Part shown: one piece after another, positions 18,865 to 59,981 of the stretch
Numbering within the stretch: the stretch's first letter is position 1
Layout: each line of letters begins with the position of its first letter
NCBI GenBank assembly: GCA_964016885.1
Contig: OZ024740.1
Location: forward strand, 82,522,001-82,586,000
DNA from: Eledone cirrhosa
Taxonomy: Eukaryota
DNA length: 64,000 nucleotides
Direction: 5' to 3'
The notes under the pieces: model-generated
What the model was told of the DNA's origin: nothing
Seen by the model: only the letters and a program-made list of their open reading frames with translations
The model's database searches: none
Made by a program: the position numbers and the translations under genes

Positions 18865-18930
18865 TATTTTGTCTGAAGAAGGCATAACATATTGTTAATA
18901 TGATATCCCTGAAATATATATAATGAAATA
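18865..18930 (+). ncRNA. Type I hammerhead ribozyme in a solo pLTR fragment
   Basis: TATTTTGT-CTGAAGA-AGG..CCT-GAAA-TATATA-TA-ATGAAATA; same family at 47384, 52793 and 55213. Confidence 0.8.
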
Positions 18931-25592: not shown

Positions 25593-25657
25593 TATATATA
25601 TATATATAGAAAGGATGAATATAAAATGAAAGTGCTTTTGTTAAAAAAGGAATTTAT

Positions 25658-25775
25658 TAGGTATTGACATATGTTTCTGTAACAGACCGAATACCTATGT
25701 ATCGCTGCTTGCGTAATCATATAATGTTAGCAAGTATTCGATAGCAAATGTATAATCAGTTGTCACTTCTTCAGA
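25658..25775 (-). ncRNA. Atypical hammerhead (copy in inverted arm)
   Basis: Reverse complement of 28513-28630. Confidence 0.7.
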
Positions 25776-26247
25776 GATTTTGGATAAACTGGATAAAATC
25801 AGAAAAATTGAAGTATTTATATTAGTAAGAGAGGAAGGAACAGAGGGGATAGAATATGACAGATGGTAAAATAATTTACTGCTAAACAAGTATATAATGG
25901 GTTTTTAATGAGAATACCATGAGTAAATCTAAATAAGAATTTTGGGGGTGCCGATTTTAATCTCTACTTGACCAACTGGACAGTGGACAGGGCTGGTCAT
26001 TTGGTGCAGTAGTATTAATCATAAAGTGTCAATTGGGGAAGGGGGAGATTTCGATTGCTACTAAATAACATCAATGCTAGTAGTCAGCTGGTATTTGCAC
26101 TAGGGAATTGAATCAAAAAATCAGAAATCTCATTTTATCTATAGCAGTTTGTATTAAAAGGTAAATAATAGAAGAGTTGATAGAATTAAGACTAATAAAG
26201 AATGTTCATATCTATTTTGACAATCAAACGGGGATAGAGACAGGCGT

Positions 26248-28174
26248 TCAATCCTGGTAGTATTTATAATATGAAAATGTAGATTTTAAGCGATGGTTAC
26301 AGTATAACGATCGCTCTATTCTGTTATTTAATAAAATGTTTTTGGATTTCATAATACAAAATAATTCTACATTACATAATCTACAAAATTCCTGTCCATT
26401 GGAATATGGGGGGGGGGCAGTCGCTATTATATCCCATTTTAGGTGAAATTGTTGGTTATTTTCACGCAGCTGCCAAGCCTTGTCTGCGAGTGTTGTTACA
26501 TAACGCTGGTTTTCATGTTTTATCGAATAACGATGTCTATAAAGGCGTGATTTAAAGGAGGTGGCTGTAGATCCCACATAGTACCACTTCTGTCTATCCG
26601 ATTCGATAGTACATTTGTATACGATGTTGCGTTCAAGACACTGATTGTTCAACGGACACATTCCTGGTTGGACACAGTTGCAATTACAATTTTGCGTTGT
26701 TGTATTGCCATGGATGGGTTGATGAGGTTGCTTATGTAGGACAGGATGTTGTTTGTTGTTTTGTGATGTTATAGCTAATGTTTTACGTGTATTGTTATGT
26801 GTTGGAAGGCGTTTATACAACCGTTTTGCGTTAAGCATTTTTATATGTTGTTCAATATTAGGGGCGGTTGAATATGAAAGTCGGATGGTGTTAGGGTTTA
26901 AGATTTTATTATATTTATGTGATGTTGGAAAGTGTTTTCTAACTAATCGAAAGAATTTTGAGGGTAGATTGGTTTTAATAGATTTGTTATAGACCGGGTT
27001 GTACCAGATATACTCCTTACATCGCCTTCTGTTTGGTGGTGTGCGACTATTATTGTGTCTATTGCGGTAGTGTATGTATGGTGGTGATTCTGTGCTATTT
27101 CTACTCCTATGTGATTTATTTTGGGTGTTTTGGTGATCATTGACTATATACTCTATATTATCTAGGTGACCGGCTTTCCTAAGTGCATCATCATAATACT
27201 CGGCATGTTCTTTGAAGGTTTGTTGGTTGGACGATAGGCGGGAGATTCTAAGAGAAACATTTCTAGGGATGGATTTAATTATAGAGAGTGGATGGTTAGA
27301 ACTCGTATTTACATATTTAAGGTTCTCATTTAGTTTATGGAACGGTTTAATCGTATCTGTATTGAGATTGAAAGTAACATCAAGGAAATTGACCTCTTTG
27401 AGGTTATATTCAAATGTAATATTTAATCCTAGTTCTTTAAAAAGTTTTCTGATATTTTTACGCATCCTTTCTAAATTCTGGTTATTCATATTCTTAACTA
27501 ATAGGAGCGCATCGTCACGGTAAATTCCACCGTGGAGATCCTTGAATTTTCCTTGTAATCTGTGGGTGATATAAATTCCCACAAGATCTGTTACCTCCGC
27601 CGAATCATTAGAACCCATAGTGATATCAAAATTAGAAGGTCTATCTTTGCGAACCCAGTAGCTATCATCGAATTTAACTATAGTTTTTCTCGCTTCCATA
27701 ATAATTTTAATTTCAGCATCCGTAAGGTCGGAATTATCCTTAGCGAACGAAAGAGCTTCATGTAGAGTATCAGGTGAAATTGAGGAATAATATTCATCAA
27801 TATCAAACTGAATAAATTTTGATTTTTTCTTATCAGTAATGTTGTTGAACCATCTTATTGCTTCATGAGTGTTACCCCATAGTTTAATCTCTACTTTAAC
27901 CTTAACTTGGGGGATAATTCTGTCTAGTATATATTTGCTAATTTTACCTATATCAGATTTAGAGGGGCATATAAGTCTAATATTAGGGTTAGTATCGAAG
28001 TTTACCTTGTGGTCCTTCAGGTTGAAGGATGGTATAGCTGGTGTTAAGGGTTGCGTTTTATCGTCAATACAAAGTTTTTTAACAATATCACATGCCGAGT
28101 TATTGATGTTTTTAAGTGTGGCTTCATTAGTTTTCCTGTATTTTTTATGCAATTCCTTACGGATGAAGTTATTG
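26248..28174 (-). pseudogene. 5'-truncated inverted copy of the PLE ORF (frame open)
   Basis: Same protein as residues ~133-773 of 28837-31158, two visible substitutions. Confidence 0.92.
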
Positions 28175-28512
28175 ATTCAATTCCCTAGTGCAAATACCAG
28201 CTGACTACTAGCATTGATGTTATTTAGTAGCAATCGAAATCTCCCCCTTCCCCAATTGACACTTTATGATTAATACTACTGCACCAAATGACCAGCCCTG
28301 TCCACTGTCCAGTTGGTCAAGTAGAGATTAAAATCGGCACCCCCAAAATTCTTATTTAGATTTACTCATGGTATTCTCATTAAAAACCCATTATATACTT
28401 GTTTAGCAGTAAATTATTTTACCATCTGTCATATTCTATCCCCTCTGTTCCTTCCTCTTTTACTAATATAAATACTTCAATTTTTCTGATTTTATCCAGT
28501 TTATCCAAAATC

Positions 28513-28630
28513 TCTGAAGAAGTGACAACTGATTATACATTTGCTATCGAATACTTGCTAACATTATATGATTACGCAAGCAGCGATACATAGGTATTCG
28601 GTCTGTTACAGAAACATATGTCAATACCTA
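28513..28630 (+). ncRNA. Atypical hammerhead: perfect core, long stem II, no canonical stem I
   Basis: CTGAAGA-(A)GTGACA ACTGA..TTGCT..CTTGC..GCAAG..AGCGA..TCGGT C TGTTAC(A)-GAAA-CATATG-TC-AATACCTA. Confidence 0.72.
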
Positions 28631-28836
28631 ATAAATTCCTTTTTTAACAAAAGCACTTTCATTTTATATTCATCCTTTCTACATTTCTCCGGAATATAAT
28701 TTATACTCGTTGAGCAAACCTGCACGTACGCTGTTCATCTCTAACGTAACGATATATTATCACTACATTATTGATAACCTGAAATTTTATTAATCTCCTA
28801 TACAGTTGAGCAACTAATTCAGCATACGCTTCTAAA

Positions 28837-31158
28837 ATGGAAAGGCACCAATTGGATATGTCGTTAAAAAACATACCTATTCAGGCAAAAAGGGAATATA
28901 TTCTAGGTATGATACGAAGGACCAATGATTTTATTCGACGAATCAGATGGAAAACATTCCATTTTGACAAAAGACGTATAAACCAAACATCGGATCTTAA
29001 CAAGGATAAATTTGGATTTAAACCTTACAAGAACCCACCCTCAAACCCACTTTTGGATGCATTTGAGCAAGACCTAATGGATATGATCATGGAGATCAAA
29101 TTTACAAAACGTAAGAACAATAAACTACAGAATGACATCACGGCACTGCTCAATAATCTAAAAAACGCCAATGGAGTTATTGTTAGAGCAGACAAAACAT
29201 CAAACGTATATACCATGGATGTGGACACTTACAATAACTTCATCCGTAAGGAATTGCATAAAAAATACAGGAAAACTAATGAAGCCACACTTAAAAACAT
29301 CAACAACTCGGCATGTGATATTGTTAAAAAACTTTGTATTGACGATAGAACGCAACCCTTAACACCAGCTATACCATCCTTCAACCTGAAGGACCACAAG
29401 GTAAACTTCGATACTAACCCTAATATTAGACTTATATGCCCCTCTAAATCTGATATAGGTAAAATTAGCAAATATATACTAGACAGAATTATCCCCCAAG
29501 TTAAGGTTAAAGTAGAGATTAAACTATGGGGTAACACTCATGAAGCAATAAGATGGTTCAACAACATTACTGATAAGAAAAAATCAAAATTTATTCAGTT
29601 TGATATTGATGAATATTATTCCTCAATTTCACCTGATACGCTACATGAAGCTCTTTCGTTCGCTAAGGATAATTCCGACCTTACGGATGCTGAAATTAAA
29701 ATTATTATGGAAGCGAGAAAAACTATAGTTAAATTCGATGATAGCTACTGGGTTCGCAAAGATAGACCTTCTAATTTTGATATCACTATGGGTTCTAATG
29801 ATTCGGCGGAGGTAACAGATCTTGTGGGAATTTATATTACCCACAGATTACAAGGAAAATTCAAGGATCTCCACGGTGGAATTTACCGTGACGATGCGCT
29901 CCTATTAGTTAAGAATATGAATAACCAGAATTTAGAAAGGATGCGTAAAAATATCAGAAAACTTTTTAAAGAACTAGGATTAAATATTACATTTGAATAT
30001 AACCTCAAAGAGGTCAATTTCCTTGATGTTACTTTCAATCTCAATACAGATACGATTAAACCGTTCCATAAACTAAATGAGAACCTTAAATATGTAAATA
30101 CGAGTTCTAACCATCCACTCTCTATAATTAAATCCATCCCTAGAAATGTTTCTCTTAGAATCTCCCGCCTATCGTCCAACCAACAAACCTTCAAAGACCA
30201 TGCCGAGTATTATGATGATGCACTTAGGAAAGCCGGTCACCTAGATAATATAGAGTATATAGTCAATGATCACCAAAACACCCAAAATAAATCACATAGG
30301 AGTAGAAATAGCACAGAATCACCACCATACATACACTACCGCAATAGACACAATAATAGTCGCACACCACCAAACAGAAGGCGATGTAAGGAGTATATCT
30401 GGTACAACCCGGTCTATAACAAATCTATTAAAACCAATCTACCCTCAAAATTCTTTCGATTAGTTAGAAAACACTTTCCAACATCACATAAATATAATAA
30501 AATCTTAAACCCTAACACCATCCGACTTTCATATTCAACCGCCCCTAATATTGAACAACATATAAAAATGCTTAACGCAAAACGGTTGTATAAACGCCTT
30601 CCAACACATAACAATACACGTAAAACATTAGCTATAACATCACAAAACAACAAACAACATCCTGTCCTACATAAGCAACCTCATCAACCCATCCATGGCA
30701 ATACAACAACGCAAAATTGTAATTGCAACTGTGTCCAACCAGGAATGTGTCCGTTGAACAATCAGTGTCTTGAACGCAACATCGTATACAAATGTACTAT
30801 CGAATCGGATAGACAGAAGTGGTACTATGTGGGATCTACAGCCACCTCCTTTAAATCACGCCTTTATAGACATCGTTATTCGATAAAACATGAAAACCAG
30901 CGTTATGTAACAACACTCGCAGACAAGGCTTGGCAGCTGCGTGAAAATAACCAACAATTTCACCTAAAATGGGATATAATAGCGACTGCCCCCCCCCCAT
31001 ATTCCAATGGACAGGAATTTTGTAGATTATGTAATGTAGAATTATTTTGTATTATGAAATCCAAAAACATTTTATTAAATAACAGAATAGAGCGATCGTT
31101 ATACTGTAACCATCGCTTAAAATCTACATTTTCATATTATAAATACTACCAGGATTGA
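28837..31158 (+). CDS. Penelope-like element polyprotein: reverse transcriptase + GIY-YIG endonuclease (intact, 773 aa)
   Basis: ADKT, KDHK, RLI, QFDIDEYYSSI, MGSNDSAE, IYRDDAL, FLDV, CNCVQPGMCPLNNQC (CxCx5Cx5C), IVYKC..YYVGS..R..H, CRLC..E, LLNNR. Confidence 0.95.
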   Translation: MERHQLDMSLKNIPIQAKREYILGMIRRTNDFIRRIRWKTFHFDKRRINQTSDLNKDKFGFKPYKNPPSNPLLDAFEQDLMDMIMEIKFTKRKNNKLQNDITALLNNLKNANGVIVRADKTSNVYTMDVDTYNNFIRKELHKKYRKTNEATLKNINNSACDIVKKLCIDDRTQPLTPAIPSFNLKDHKVNFDTNPNIRLICPSKSDIGKISKYILDRIIPQVKVKVEIKLWGNTHEAIRWFNNITDKKKSKFIQFDIDEYYSSISPDTLHEALSFAKDNSDLTDAEIKIIMEARKTIVKFDDSYWVRKDRPSNFDITMGSNDSAEVTDLVGIYITHRLQGKFKDLHGGIYRDDALLLVKNMNNQNLERMRKNIRKLFKELGLNITFEYNLKEVNFLDVTFNLNTDTIKPFHKLNENLKYVNTSSNHPLSIIKSIPRNVSLRISRLSSNQQTFKDHAEYYDDALRKAGHLDNIEYIVNDHQNTQNKSHRSRNSTESPPYIHYRNRHNNSRTPPNRRRCKEYIWYNPVYNKSIKTNLPSKFFRLVRKHFPTSHKYNKILNPNTIRLSYSTAPNIEQHIKMLNAKRLYKRLPTHNNTRKTLAITSQNNKQHPVLHKQPHQPIHGNTTTQNCNCNCVQPGMCPLNNQCLERNIVYKCTIESDRQKWYYVGSTATSFKSRLYRHRYSIKHENQRYVTTLADKAWQLRENNQQFHLKWDIIATAPPPYSNGQEFCRLCNVELFCIMKSKNILLNNRIERSLYCNHRLKSTFSYYKYYQD

Positions 31159-31630
31159 ACGCCTGTCTCTATCCCCGTTTGATTGTCAAAATAGATATGA
31201 ACATTCTTTATTAGTCTTAATTCTATCAACTCTTCTATTATTTACCTTTTAATACAAACTGCTATAGATAAAATGAGATTTCTGATTTTTTGATTCAATT
31301 CCCTAGTGCAAATACCAGCTGACTACTAGCATTGATGTTATTTAGTAGCAATCGAAATCTCCCCCTTCCCCAATTGACACTTTATGATTAATACTACTGC
31401 ACCAAATGACCAGCCCTGTCCACTGTCCAGTTGGTCAAGTAGAGATTAAAATCGGCACCCCCAAAATTCTTATTTAGATTTAATCATGGTATTCTCATTA
31501 AAAACCCATTATATACTTGTTTAGCAGTAAATTATTTTACCATCTGTCATATTCTATCCCCTCTGTTCCTTCCTCTTTTACTAATATAAATACTTCAATT
31601 TTTCTGATTTTATCCAGTTTATCCAAAATC

Positions 31631-31748
31631 TCTGAAGAAGTGACAACTGATTATACATTTGCTATCGAATACTTGCTAACATTATATGATTACGCAAGCA
31701 GCGATACATAGGTATTCGGTCTGTTACAGAAACATATGTCAATACCTA
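31631..31748 (+). ncRNA. Atypical hammerhead (3' pLTR copy)
   Basis: Identical to 28513-28630. Confidence 0.72.
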
Positions 31749-31900
31749 ATAAATTCCTTTTTTAACAAAAGCACTTTCATTTTATATTCATCCTTTCTAC
31801 ATTTCTCCGGAATATAATTTATACTCGTTGAGCAAACCTGCACGTACGCTGTTCATCTCTAACGTAACGATATATTATCACTACATTATTGATAACCTGA

Positions 31901-32362
<462 letters not shown>

Positions 32363-34531: not shown

Positions 34532-34889
34532 TTCTTTAAAAAATATACCCATCTTTCTAACTTATTTCAAAGTTATTTATCATATTCTATATCATTCCTA
34601 TTCATCACTTCCCTTTCTTCCTTTTCCTTTTCTTTTCTTTTTCTTTTAATTTCTAACCCCTAATCTGTACCTTTTCTTACTGTGCCTAACATAGAAACAA
34701 TTATTACACAATACACTATATTCTTACTTTATATCACCTTGAAAAAATAAAAAAATATTCGTAAACATAAACATTTTTTTGGACGTCAGATTATTCATCC
34801 TCTATTCATTATTTTTTTCTCACTTTCATCTAACTTATTCATGCTCATCTCACAATATATCCTTACTTACATTACTTCTGTTTTTTTAA

Positions 34890-35060
34890 TAATACATATC
34901 AATATTTTCTTTCCATCGCACATATTATTAAACCCTTAAAATTATTCTTAATATATATTAACATTTCCTTTCCATCGCACATATCATTAAACCCTTAAAT
35001 ATTATTCTTAATACATATTAACAATTTCTTTTAATCGCACATACTATTAAACCCTTCAAT
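34890..35060 (+). repeat. Three ~60-bp tandem repeats in the PLE 3' UTR
   Basis: TAATACATAT..ATCGCACATA..ATTAAACCCTT repeated three times. Confidence 0.85.
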
Positions 35061-52792: not shown

Positions 52793-52858
52793 TATTTCAT
52801 TATATATATTTCAGGGATATCATATTAAAAATATGTTATGCCCTCTTCAGATAAAATA
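52793..52858 (-). ncRNA. Type I hammerhead ribozyme
   Basis: TATTTTAT-CTGAAGA-GGG..CCCT-GAAA-TATATA-TA-ATGAAATA. Confidence 0.82.
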
Positions 52859-57280: not shown

Positions 57281-59981
57281 TTATGGAATTATTGTCAGAG
57301 CGGACAAAACAGCAAATGTGTATAGGATGGATGTTAATACATACAATAGCTTCATACGGAAGGAATTACATAGGAAATATAAAAAAAATAATTAGGCGGC
57401 ACTGATAAACATCAACAACGAGGCACACAATATAGTCAAACACCTAGGAATAGACGACAGAACGGAGCCACTTAGACCATGTACACCCACATTTAATCTC
57501 AAAGATCACAAGGTAAATTTTGAATATAACCCCACAATTAGACTTATATGCCCGTCCAAATCGGACATCGGGAAAATTAGTAAACTTATATTAGACAGAG
57601 TGATAGCGCAAATGAAGAATAAACTAGCGATTAAACTATGTGGTAACGCTACCGAAACAATTAAGTGGTTTAACAATATAGCTAACAAAGAAGTATCTAA
57701 ATTTATACAACTTGACATTAACGACTATTACTCCTCTATATCCCCCAACACCTTGGATAAAGCCTTAGCATTCGCCAAAGCCAATACTGACCTAACAGAC
57801 GACGAGATAAAAATCATATTAGCTGCTAGGAAAACAATAATTAAATTTGAAAACGCCTATTGCGAACGTAAGGATAGATTAAATAACTTTGTCATCACGA
57901 TGGAGGCTAACGACTCGGCTCAAGTCACAGATTTAGTAGGTATTTACATAGCCCATAATTTACAAAGTGAGTATAGCGACCTTCACGGTGGAATCTTCAG
58001 AGACGACGCCCTACTCCTAGTTAATAACCTAAATAACCAGAGCATAGAAATACTCCGTAAGAATATTAGAAAGACTCTCGGGAAACTATGCCTTAGCATA
58101 ACATATGCATATAGCACTAAAACAGTTAACTTTCTAGACGCGACGCTTAACCTAAATACGGGACATATAAAATCTTTTCACAAGATTAATGAACACTTAG
58201 CATACATCAACTGTAACTCAAACCACCTACTATCCATAATTAAATCCATTCCATGCAGCATATCCCTTAGGATCTCCCGCCTCTCGTCTAACCGACAAAT
58301 CTTCGAAGAAGATGCAGGATACTACAATACCGCATTAGACAAGGCAGACCACTTAGATAGAGTAGAATATATAGATGAAAGCTTCCGTGAAGCGCACACG
58401 AACACGCATAACACAAACTCCGGTACCACACGCACACACGCAATTAGGCATAGAACTGCAAAGTATACGGCAAATAGAAATACAACATCGAAATCAAACA
58501 AGTCACGCAGTAGAAAATATATTTAGTATAACCCCATATTTAACACATCTATTAGTACTAACCTACCCTCTACCTTCTTTAGAATAATAAATAAACACTT
58601 TCCAGATTCACATAGATACAGCAAAATCCTTAACACTAAATCTATTAGACTATCTTACTCCACAGCACCAAATATAGAGGCACACTTTAAGATGCTTATC
58701 GCTAAAAAGATACATAACAACACCAGAACACAAATTTTCAACAATAACAATACAATCACCATTGAACACAACAGAATATCTAATACACAACCACCCACTA
58801 ATAGGCAAACAAAACGTAACACACTTGTACAGGCATCGCAGCCTACCAATAATGCCAAAGTTGCCCATGACAAGAAATGTAACTGCCACCTACCTGAAAC
58901 CTGTCCATTACATAAATAATGTATGCAGTCTAATCTGGTTTACCAATGCACAGTGGAATCAGACAACCAGGAATGGTATTACATCGGAGCGACTGGGAAT
59001 ACATTTAAAGCCCGTTGGTATACACACCGTTACGCAATGAAACATTCCCAACATCGTTATGTAACTACCTTTGCAAACAAGACCTGGCAACAGATGGAAA
59101 GTAACCATCAATACACTCTGAAGTGGAAAAATTATCGACGCGCCCCCATATCGGACTGCTATGAGAAGCTGTCGATTATACGAACTTGAGATGTTCCACA
59201 TCTTGAGTTCGAAGAATAAGTTACTCAACAATAAAATCGAAAGATCAATTTATTGTAAGCATAGACTCAAAGAGAAGTTTTCGCACTACAAGTGCAAATC
59301 GAACCCTTAACCTCTTACGACCATCTGACAAACTGCATATACTTAGACTTTATACCCTCTTGTTGTATCTAAACCCTTTGAATTACCCACAAAACCAATA
59401 CATATATCCTCCATCTCCTTCATTCCACTTCTATTTCTTCGTTTTCTTCCTTCCTTCCCCCTTTTGGCTATCTTTTCTTTTCTTCTCCCCCCCCCCTCTT
59501 TGCTTTTATTTTTGTCATTATTATCTTTATCTTTATTTTTTATATATATATTTATCTCTTTATATCTCCCCCATCTCTTTCTCTCTCTCTCTATACATCC
59601 CTCCCACTATGATCAATTTAATTCTCTTTAACTCACTACATTCCACGACATGAAGTCTACTTACCAAAACTGATCAAGGAATCCTTTCACCTCTACACCT
59701 CCTTCCACCTCTACCCCTTCCTCTCTCTCTATACTATTCCGTCTGTACCTCACCTTCTGATGCCTCTCTCTCTATACTAGTAAATACAATTCCAAATAAA
59801 TGTTTTTCTCTATATATTAAGAATTATTTCAAGAGTTACTTACTCACTATTTTGGACTGTGAACAACAATTATAATTGAGTGGCTGCTATTTGCAGTATA
59901 GCAATATAAGGTTGCATTTACCAATGAAACGGTTGTAAATACCCGGATAAAATCCTTCTCTTAATGCTTACCGGTGTTTTC

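Follow-up and report, generated by a model that had tools for sequence, protein, structure and literature searches.

The host element and its hammerhead motif

The window, a 64,000-nucleotide stretch of the Eledone cirrhosa genome (contig OZ024740.1 of assembly GCA_964016885.1), contains a Penelope-like element (PLE) whose features are collected in Table 1. Its 773-amino-acid reading frame, described as open by the first-pass annotation, was confirmed. The encoded protein carries the RWK and DKT motifs, the CxCx5C linker, CxxC, CxH and a C-terminal endonuclease, with no CCHH motif; together with the (TA)n target these are features of Hydra-clade PLEs, a placement that compares the ORF motifs with the published description, the RT tree having drawn on this genome's copies alone. 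A Pfam search of the ORF gave no match above the cut-off, and no related locus was confirmed among 96 pattern matches in metagenome contigs. Protein relatives elsewhere are distant (the best 47% over part of the sequence, another 35%), and therefore every comparison was made inside one genome. The load of Hydra-type PLEs in that genome is very large: one distant protein query returned 88,763 first-look candidates, and several PLE families hold open frames of 710-770 amino acids.

Table 1. Features of the element, of its hammerhead motif and of a related remnant, in window coordinates
Feature	Position	Strand	Remarks
Inverted copy, 5′-truncated	25604..28174	-	third identical hammerhead (core 25774)
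Upstream pLTR	28169..28790	+	5′-truncated partial tandem copy
Distal stem I, predicted 5′ strand	28498..28504	+	AGUUUAU (AAUUUAU in older copies); shuffle p 0.07-0.11
Degenerate proximal stem I, 5′ strand	28505..28513	+	CCAAAAUCU (CCAAUAUCU in older copies); U2.1-A1.1, bulged C, 2-3 A-U pairs
Hammerhead core	28514..28520	+	CUGAAGA (C3-A9), from sequence; core 16-mer matched genome-wide
Stem II module, 90 nt	28521..28610	+	A.A mismatch 10.1/11.1, proximal helix 28522-28527/28604-28609, distal hairpin
Helix P, 5′ strand, inside stem II	28535..28538	+	AUAC, partner GUAU 28594-28597; 4/4 pairs changed on both sides across families
Conserved UAG loop motif and helix P 3′ strand	28591..28598	+	UAGGUAUU; candidate pseudoknot or off-state strand against 28623-28630
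GAAA, stem III, GUC	28611..28622	+	stem III ACAUAUGU; predicted cut 28622/28623; 11 genomic copies begin after GUC
3′ tail	28623..28637	+	AAUACCUA (1.1-1.8), then AUAAAUU, the predicted distal stem I 3′ strand
RT and C-terminal endonuclease ORF, 773 aa	28837..31158	+	Hydra-type motifs
Downstream pLTR	31287..31908	+	second identical hammerhead (core 31632); terminates in (TA)n
Family B hammerhead remnant	59850..59950	+	8 nt holding the U3-A8 core missing from the window copy

The hammerhead had been reported as identical in three copies, and this is the case at 28514 (+), 31632 (+) and 25774 (-); the three belong to a single tandem/inverted insertion and hence are non-independent. The core, which had been called perfect, can be read directly in the sequence as CUGAAGA and GAAA, and the palindromic stem III is indeed provided by the self-complementary ACAUAUGU at 28614-28621, with the GUC site at 28620-28622. 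CUGANGA, GAAA and UH follow one another in C-G-S order with an A15.1-U16.1 pair, as in type I hammerheads, and the core, this order and the pLTR location bear out the statement that PLE pLTRs carry hammerheads of this type. The short palindromic stem III and the tandem pLTRs are those of the dimeric PLE hammerheads; the self-duplex of ACAUAUGU amounts to 8 bp, intermolecular, at -9.0 kcal/mol (25 °C). Stem II adjoins the core through a 6-bp covarying helix beyond an A.A mismatch.

Stem I departs from the type I pattern of at least two contiguous pairs beside the core. Contiguous pairing consists of U28513-A28623 alone, as had been noted. A site block elsewhere in the transcript, as in a non-circularly permuted hammerhead, was rejected along with a longer stem III (at most 3-4 pairs on both stems anywhere in 28169-31908), and splicing was ruled out as the source of a new stem I strand, with no AG adjoining the core. 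The motif had been described as lacking stem I altogether. The contiguous loss stands; total absence was an overstatement, since pairing is possible in a proximal register with a bulge and in a distal helix of 7 bp. With C28512 bulged, three A-U pairs are predicted in the young subfamily, to which the window copies belong, and four in an older one. The distal helix (28498-28504/28631-28637) is predicted, A-U rich and close to chance expectation (shuffle p 0.07-0.11); the sole change between old and young subfamilies within it keeps pairing as G-U, and its tail strand AUAAAUU overlaps an AAUAAA motif common to the whole clade. One further proximal pair has been lost in the young subfamily (T28509A). 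A hammerhead-competent monomer lies some 7-8 kcal/mol above the minimum-energy fold.

An Rfam scan of the window at E <= 5 returned no hammerhead and only repeat-driven miRNA noise. Nine other PLE-family hammerheads, with ordinary stem I and likewise not detected by Rfam, lie in the window at 18873, 19970, 24045, 25280, 35418, 47392 and 55221 (+) and at 52850 and ~458 (-). Ahead of the hammerhead of another PLE family, its 3′ UTR contains a 58-nt unit repeated three times in tandem (34883-35059).

The core 16-mer gave 1,894 matches (947 + 947) in the 3.0-Gb genome, corresponding to some 1,900 copies of this family, here family A. Among the first 30 matches by position, 15 were of the young window type (AAAATCT), 11 of the older type (AATATCT) and four of other types. 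A second search was for copies that lack the C at 2.2. Of its 60 matches about 29 are, by eye, variants in a single base; an older subfamily with an intact stem I was sought among these 60 and not found. Neither search produced a restored-stem-I subfamily; the reduction of stem I is therefore fixed in the family rather than decay, which agrees with the earlier judgement that decay is unlikely to explain the loss next to the core.

Two further properties of the family A copies were observed. Numbered from the predicted cut, the copy ends that adjoin (TA)n fall at +62 (31 HSP ends) or at +168, both of them fixed sites (window 28684 and 28790, and 31802 and 31908). At 106 nt the tail exceeds the 30-40 nt given for PLEs, and the pair of sites fits two RT starts. 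In about 29 of 81 matches, on old as well as young backgrounds, the palindrome has lost 2 nt yet remains self-complementary (ACATGT), which probably reflects recurrent slippage.

Sister families, stem II and the 8-bp match

Sister families B, C1-C4, E, F, G, H and J were found with degenerate patterns on a C-terminal peptide motif, and one representative copy of each was chosen by hand. Contiguous stem I comprises 3-7 covarying pairs in 12 of 12 sister representatives, compared with one in both A subfamilies. In a tree of this genome's copies only, A groups with E and F (support 88/87, inner order unresolved), and the loss of stem I is therefore derived. The sister stems are themselves not robust: duplex energies for stem I were +0.8 kcal/mol in B, -0.8 in F, +0.9 in A-old and +2.0 in A-young, which makes B and F no less marginal than A-old. 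A proximal stem followed by a bulge or loop and a distal stem is also predicted in C1, C3, C4, G, J and H2, and the extended stem I of no family is significant (p 0.06-0.66).

For the covariation analysis 15 representatives were aligned; F and J were misaligned at the tail and were partly set aside. The loci of alignment A1 were L032, L077, L153, L162, L163, L166, L193, L194, L198, L205, L231 and L235. The canonical fold, including the inner helix of stem II that we call helix P, was paired in 87% of cells with 66 two-sided changes, a score reached in none of 500 shuffles. Pairs 2.2-1.2 and 2.3-1.3 were broken in two rows only, as expected for the two A rows. RNAalifold on the alignment recovered the proximal stem II only.

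The long, multi-segment stem II described earlier holds up as a fold: none of 200 shuffles folds as well as the 90-nt module (z -4.2), while folding of the whole 161-nt region is unremarkable (z -1.46). One of its segments does not, since UUAU/AUAG is the energy-minimum pairing but the sister families support AUAC/GUAU, that is, helix P. Five of the six proximal pairs of stem II have changed on both sides among families, and helix P reads ATAC/GTAT in A, TTAC/GTAA in E, CAAC/GTTG in B, CAGT/ACTG in G and ACAGC/GCTGT in H; within the lineage of family A its pairing has been kept with both sides changed. Stem II measures 72-91 nt in all sister families and carries conserved AGC and TAG motifs. 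Common to this whole subclade of Hydra-type PLEs is a stem II in which AGC is invariant and TAG nearly so, and whose inner helix, 13-15 bp from the core, covaries. We found no description of a conserved 72-91-nt PLE stem II in a literature search that covered older subscription papers poorly. The conserved module is a candidate for the site at which the element's protein binds.

The first-pass annotation had also pointed out that UAGGUAUU (28591-28598) is exactly complementary to AAUACCUA (28623-28630), which is correct, and had proposed that this pairing replaces stem I as a pseudoknot or acts as a switch. An exact 8-mer complement arose in 56 of 20,000 shuffles of stem II, and in about 1% of such shuffles a run of at least 8 could pair within the tail's first 12 bases. 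Five of the pairs, UAGGU/ACCUA, are inherited: TAGGT also occurs in E and F, and AATACCT in B and C1. Eight base pairs are reached in A and E only, the 11 other representatives having 3-4. In family E, UAGGUAAC pairs with GUU-ACCUA in a perfect 8-bp match that differs from A's by two compensated pairs; it spans the cut site and therefore cannot belong to the active fold. Across the alignment the eight pairs form in 47% of cells, a score reached by 209 of 500 shuffles, and the covarying stem I-stem II helix that marks pseudoknotted hammerheads is lacking. The match is lineage-specific, however, and for that reason the clade-wide covariation test does not dispose of a recent innovation. An AGGT/ACCT pairing as a clade-wide pseudoknot, an idea taken from family B, was rejected, the conserved part being TAG and helix P. 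As a nested hairpin the 8-bp pairing destroys proximal stem II; its predicted occupancy is 0.94-0.99 in A-old, 0.01-0.03 in A-young and 0.00-0.01 in E.

A decayed relative at 59926-59943 had been cited in support because it too has AATACC after its cleavage triplet. The AATACC is present, but the relative is no evidence for a pseudoknot or switch. It is a family B copy that lost its core through an 8-nt deletion, and at 29 other loci of family B the U3-A8 core is intact, stem I is a normal TATT/AATA helix and TAGGTATT is missing. The U3-A8 core also occurs in family G and in an unrelated short-stem family, and the stem III of family B is self-complementary via tandem G-U pairs. Other core variants are common to several copies with intact stems, namely CUGAUGU (A9U) in family C2 and CUGGAGA (A6G) in family J.

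Conservation of the motif and 5′ ends of truncated copies

Majority bases were compared between 24 old and 21 young distinct copies of family A. Against 60 differing positions of 465 in the upstream UTR (Fisher p = 4e-5, or 5e-4 once the 24 bases by which copies were selected are set aside) and 38 of 514 in the ORF end (p = 0.008), the stretch from core to cut site has 1 of 109. That sole change in the young subfamily, C28600G, strengthens the extended stem II. Contigs of run X1, which possibly derive from the assembly's own sample, have one variable site in 28510-28647 and 18 in 28204-28509. These sequence comparisons indicate that the RNA motif, which is probably functional, is under selection, whether this acts on catalysis or on the stem II module.

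On a template cut after GUC, reverse transcription that begins at the +62 and +168 starts should run off at +1. Junctions were collected by pattern searches for copies with a foreign upstream flank and were checked on fetched loci. Within +1..+7, where all 28 matches were checked, position +1 accounted for 10 of the 23 junctions; it accounted for 9 of 36 in -11..+1 (81 matches; 59 loci checked, the remainder internal indels by eye), and in -29..-18 there were at most seven junctions per position (59 matches; 44 loci checked). The two +1 sets overlap, and their union of 11 events places +1 at the top of 30 positions against a background of 2.6 per position over 29 positions, with paired or duplicated rows merged (Poisson p = 0.002, negative-binomial p = 0.012). 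Three of the 11 events abut (TA)n and could be +2, and nine of the 11 copies are not of the youngest type. Control families with a normal stem I, scored by eye at +1, gave 5/30 in F (p = 0.18), 7/38 in H (p = 0.08), 3/23 in E (p = 0.42) and 6/84 in B (p = 0.87). Since none of these has a significant excess, the +1 pile does not count as a validated signature of cleavage; at a position fixed beforehand, and weakly reproduced by the controls, it is a hint of in vivo cleavage.

Two inversions in family H have their junctions at the cut site (C4:114730608 and C552:85128). The strands of the family's stem I give microhomology at these junctions, and stem I may therefore guide template switching. 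Counting the starts of truncated copies offers a genome-only route to in vivo cutting by PLE hammerheads, for which RNA-seq failed in the Anolis element.

Readings of the reduced stem I and known hammerheads

The reading we favour, at a confidence that falls just short of even, is a weak type I hammerhead, dimer-dependent and probably protein-assisted, with an interrupted stem I. According to this model, two pLTR copies on a single transcript would pair via ACAUAUGU; the tail would be held by U2.1-A1.1, a bulged C, two to three A-U pairs and, past an internal loop, the 7-bp distal helix; and the cut would fall after the GUC ending at 28622, between 28622 and 28623. The element's own protein would probably aid folding, by analogy with the Anolis PLE, for which the available text of PMC11167929 reports protein-assisted hammerhead cleavage. 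The 8-bp match would be a by-product of the inherited UAGGU/ACCUA and of drift of helix P to GUAU, and at most a competing inactive fold. The covariation of the canonical fold, the occupation of GUAU by helix P, the marginal stems I of sister families, the conservation of the motif and the +1 ends argue for this reading. Against it stand the weakness of the distal helix on its own, the T28509A change, the energy of the monomer and the control families without a +1 excess. A further objection is that family A alone has lost proximal stem I and alone has a perfect match to exactly 1.1-1.8, a coincidence that we estimate at a few to ten percent.

It is this coincidence of register and loss that speaks for a strand-swap pseudoknot, which we regard as unlikely but as the foremost of the alternatives. 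Here UAGGUAUU would leave stem II and pair with 1.1-1.8 (or 1.2-1.8), replacing proximal stem I; the new helix would stack on the 7-bp distal stem I, and CCAAAAUCU would be unpaired up to C3. The match begins exactly at 1.1 and stops exactly where the distal helix starts, and both of its strands are unchanged between old and young subfamilies. Its rough energy of about -33 kcal/mol, before any pseudoknot penalty and with the duplex term taken at 37 °C, compares with an interrupted stem I at -28.2 in the young and -25.5 in the old subfamily. There is a precedent in stem I-stem II pseudoknots, which according to the accessible part of PMC3088659 are present in ~40% of hammerheads and rescue a stem II of 1 bp. 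The pairing nevertheless lacks clade-wide covariation among the 15 aligned representatives and needs helix P, which covaries and persists in the lineage, to be melted at ~12 kcal/mol; the young C28600G change stabilizes the competing stem II by ~4 kcal/mol. It would also break the rule, stated for all known alignments in the text available of PMC10085705, that CUGANGA is contiguous with a stem I strand. The pseudoknot proposed at first is thus unsupported by clade covariation and not excluded by the energies, and is the less likely reading. As a recent strand-swap from a canonical ancestor that survives in the sisters, it would form a continuous 15-bp helix, toggle with the off-hairpin and have left a record of cleavage in the 5′ ends; this fuller version seems to us equally unlikely.

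Rather improbable, too, is a retired ribozyme, in which cleavage would have gone with stem I, stem II would be kept for protein binding or another step, and the +1 ends would reflect RT stalling or template switching. The single contiguous pair of stem I fits such a history, as do the weak controls of the +1 test, and at the UTR rate the roughly 20 core and stem III bases would remain unchanged by chance with an estimated probability near 0.06. In the portions available of the respective papers, hammerhead mutants were without effect on insertion in vitro (PMC11167929) and Naiad PLEs thrive without canonical hammerheads (PMC8557442). However, the core, palindrome and GUC are perfect in both subfamilies, and the 5′-end excess falls at one pre-predicted position, not at the helix 3′ edge expected for stalling (profiled to +7).

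Least probable in our estimation is a selected off-switch, with the nested 8-bp hairpin lying over GAAA and the cut site until a dimer or protein restores stem II: in the older subfamily this hairpin is predicted to be the ground state, a separate perfect match crosses the cut site in family E, and damped cleavage could be favoured because uncleaved RNA is the main insertion template of the Anolis element, as far as the text of PMC11167929 is accessible, but predicted occupancy is near nil in the young active subfamily and in E, E's two extra pairs have a ~6% probability by chance, and most +1 copies are not of the youngest type, though older copies should be the more inhibited. The switch proposed earlier thus keeps some support from A-old and from E, and none from the family B relative.

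If the motif cleaves, it would set a lower limit for stem I in natural hammerheads, and the nine or more sister families form an evolutionary series that points to the exact mutants; if the pseudoknot is real, it would break an assumption behind the enumeration of hammerhead topologies. No description was found of a hammerhead that lacks stem I, or of a proximal stem I supplied by stem II, in a search with poor coverage of older subscription literature. As far as the available text of the sources goes, PLE pLTR hammerheads, stem I-stem II pseudoknots and a 1-bp or absent stem II are already in print, the U3-A8 core variant is known from PLE hammerheads, and a 2-bp helix I and dimer cleavage have been published for them (PMC4209133).

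The type I hammerheads of Hydra-clade PLEs (Craig et al, 2021; PMC8557442) are, from the accessible sections of that paper, alike in their pLTR position after the ORF, CUGANGA/GAAA core, frequent core-side base mismatch of stem II and short self-complementary stem III, and their elements are alike in (TA)n targets and protein motifs. In each of the 26 Hydra rows listed there stem I has at least 3 (near-)contiguous pairs and stem II is short, with 3-10 nt in its loop, whereas here stem II takes up 90 nt and contiguous stem I 1 bp. The minimal PLE hammerheads, including that of D. virilis (Cervera & de la Pena, 2014; PMC4209133), share the dimer-dependent design and the palindromic stem III; in the portion of the text available, helix I of the D. 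virilis hammerhead is 2 bp, conserved in 97 of 130 copies and likewise short, the U3-A8 core occurs, as it does in families B and G, and activity is low. Their helix II is 6-8 bp and the same portion describes no 8-bp tail match; the present element has no core-adjacent splice acceptor.

Pseudoknot-stabilised hammerheads (Perreault et al, 2011; PMC3088659) resemble the strand-swap in a Watson-Crick contact that links stem I to stem II and in a 1-bp core stem that can be rescued. In the parts available it is stem II that is weak, with the pseudoknot supplementing stem I, whereas here the pseudoknot would replace proximal stem I, and without covariation. The non-circularly permuted SGC and CSG hammerheads (Eckert et al, 2023; PMC10085705) are alike in their unusual, pseudoknotted connectivity of stem I/II strands but, in the accessible text, keep CUGANGA contiguous with a stem I strand; the motif described here has the ordinary C-G-S order. 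Finally, the Poseidon PAc element of Anolis (PMC11167929) is a PLE with two RT start sites that give two 3′ ends, comparable with +62 and +168 here, and while the available text reports no RNA reads at its cut site, genomic copies of the present family are enriched at the predicted site.
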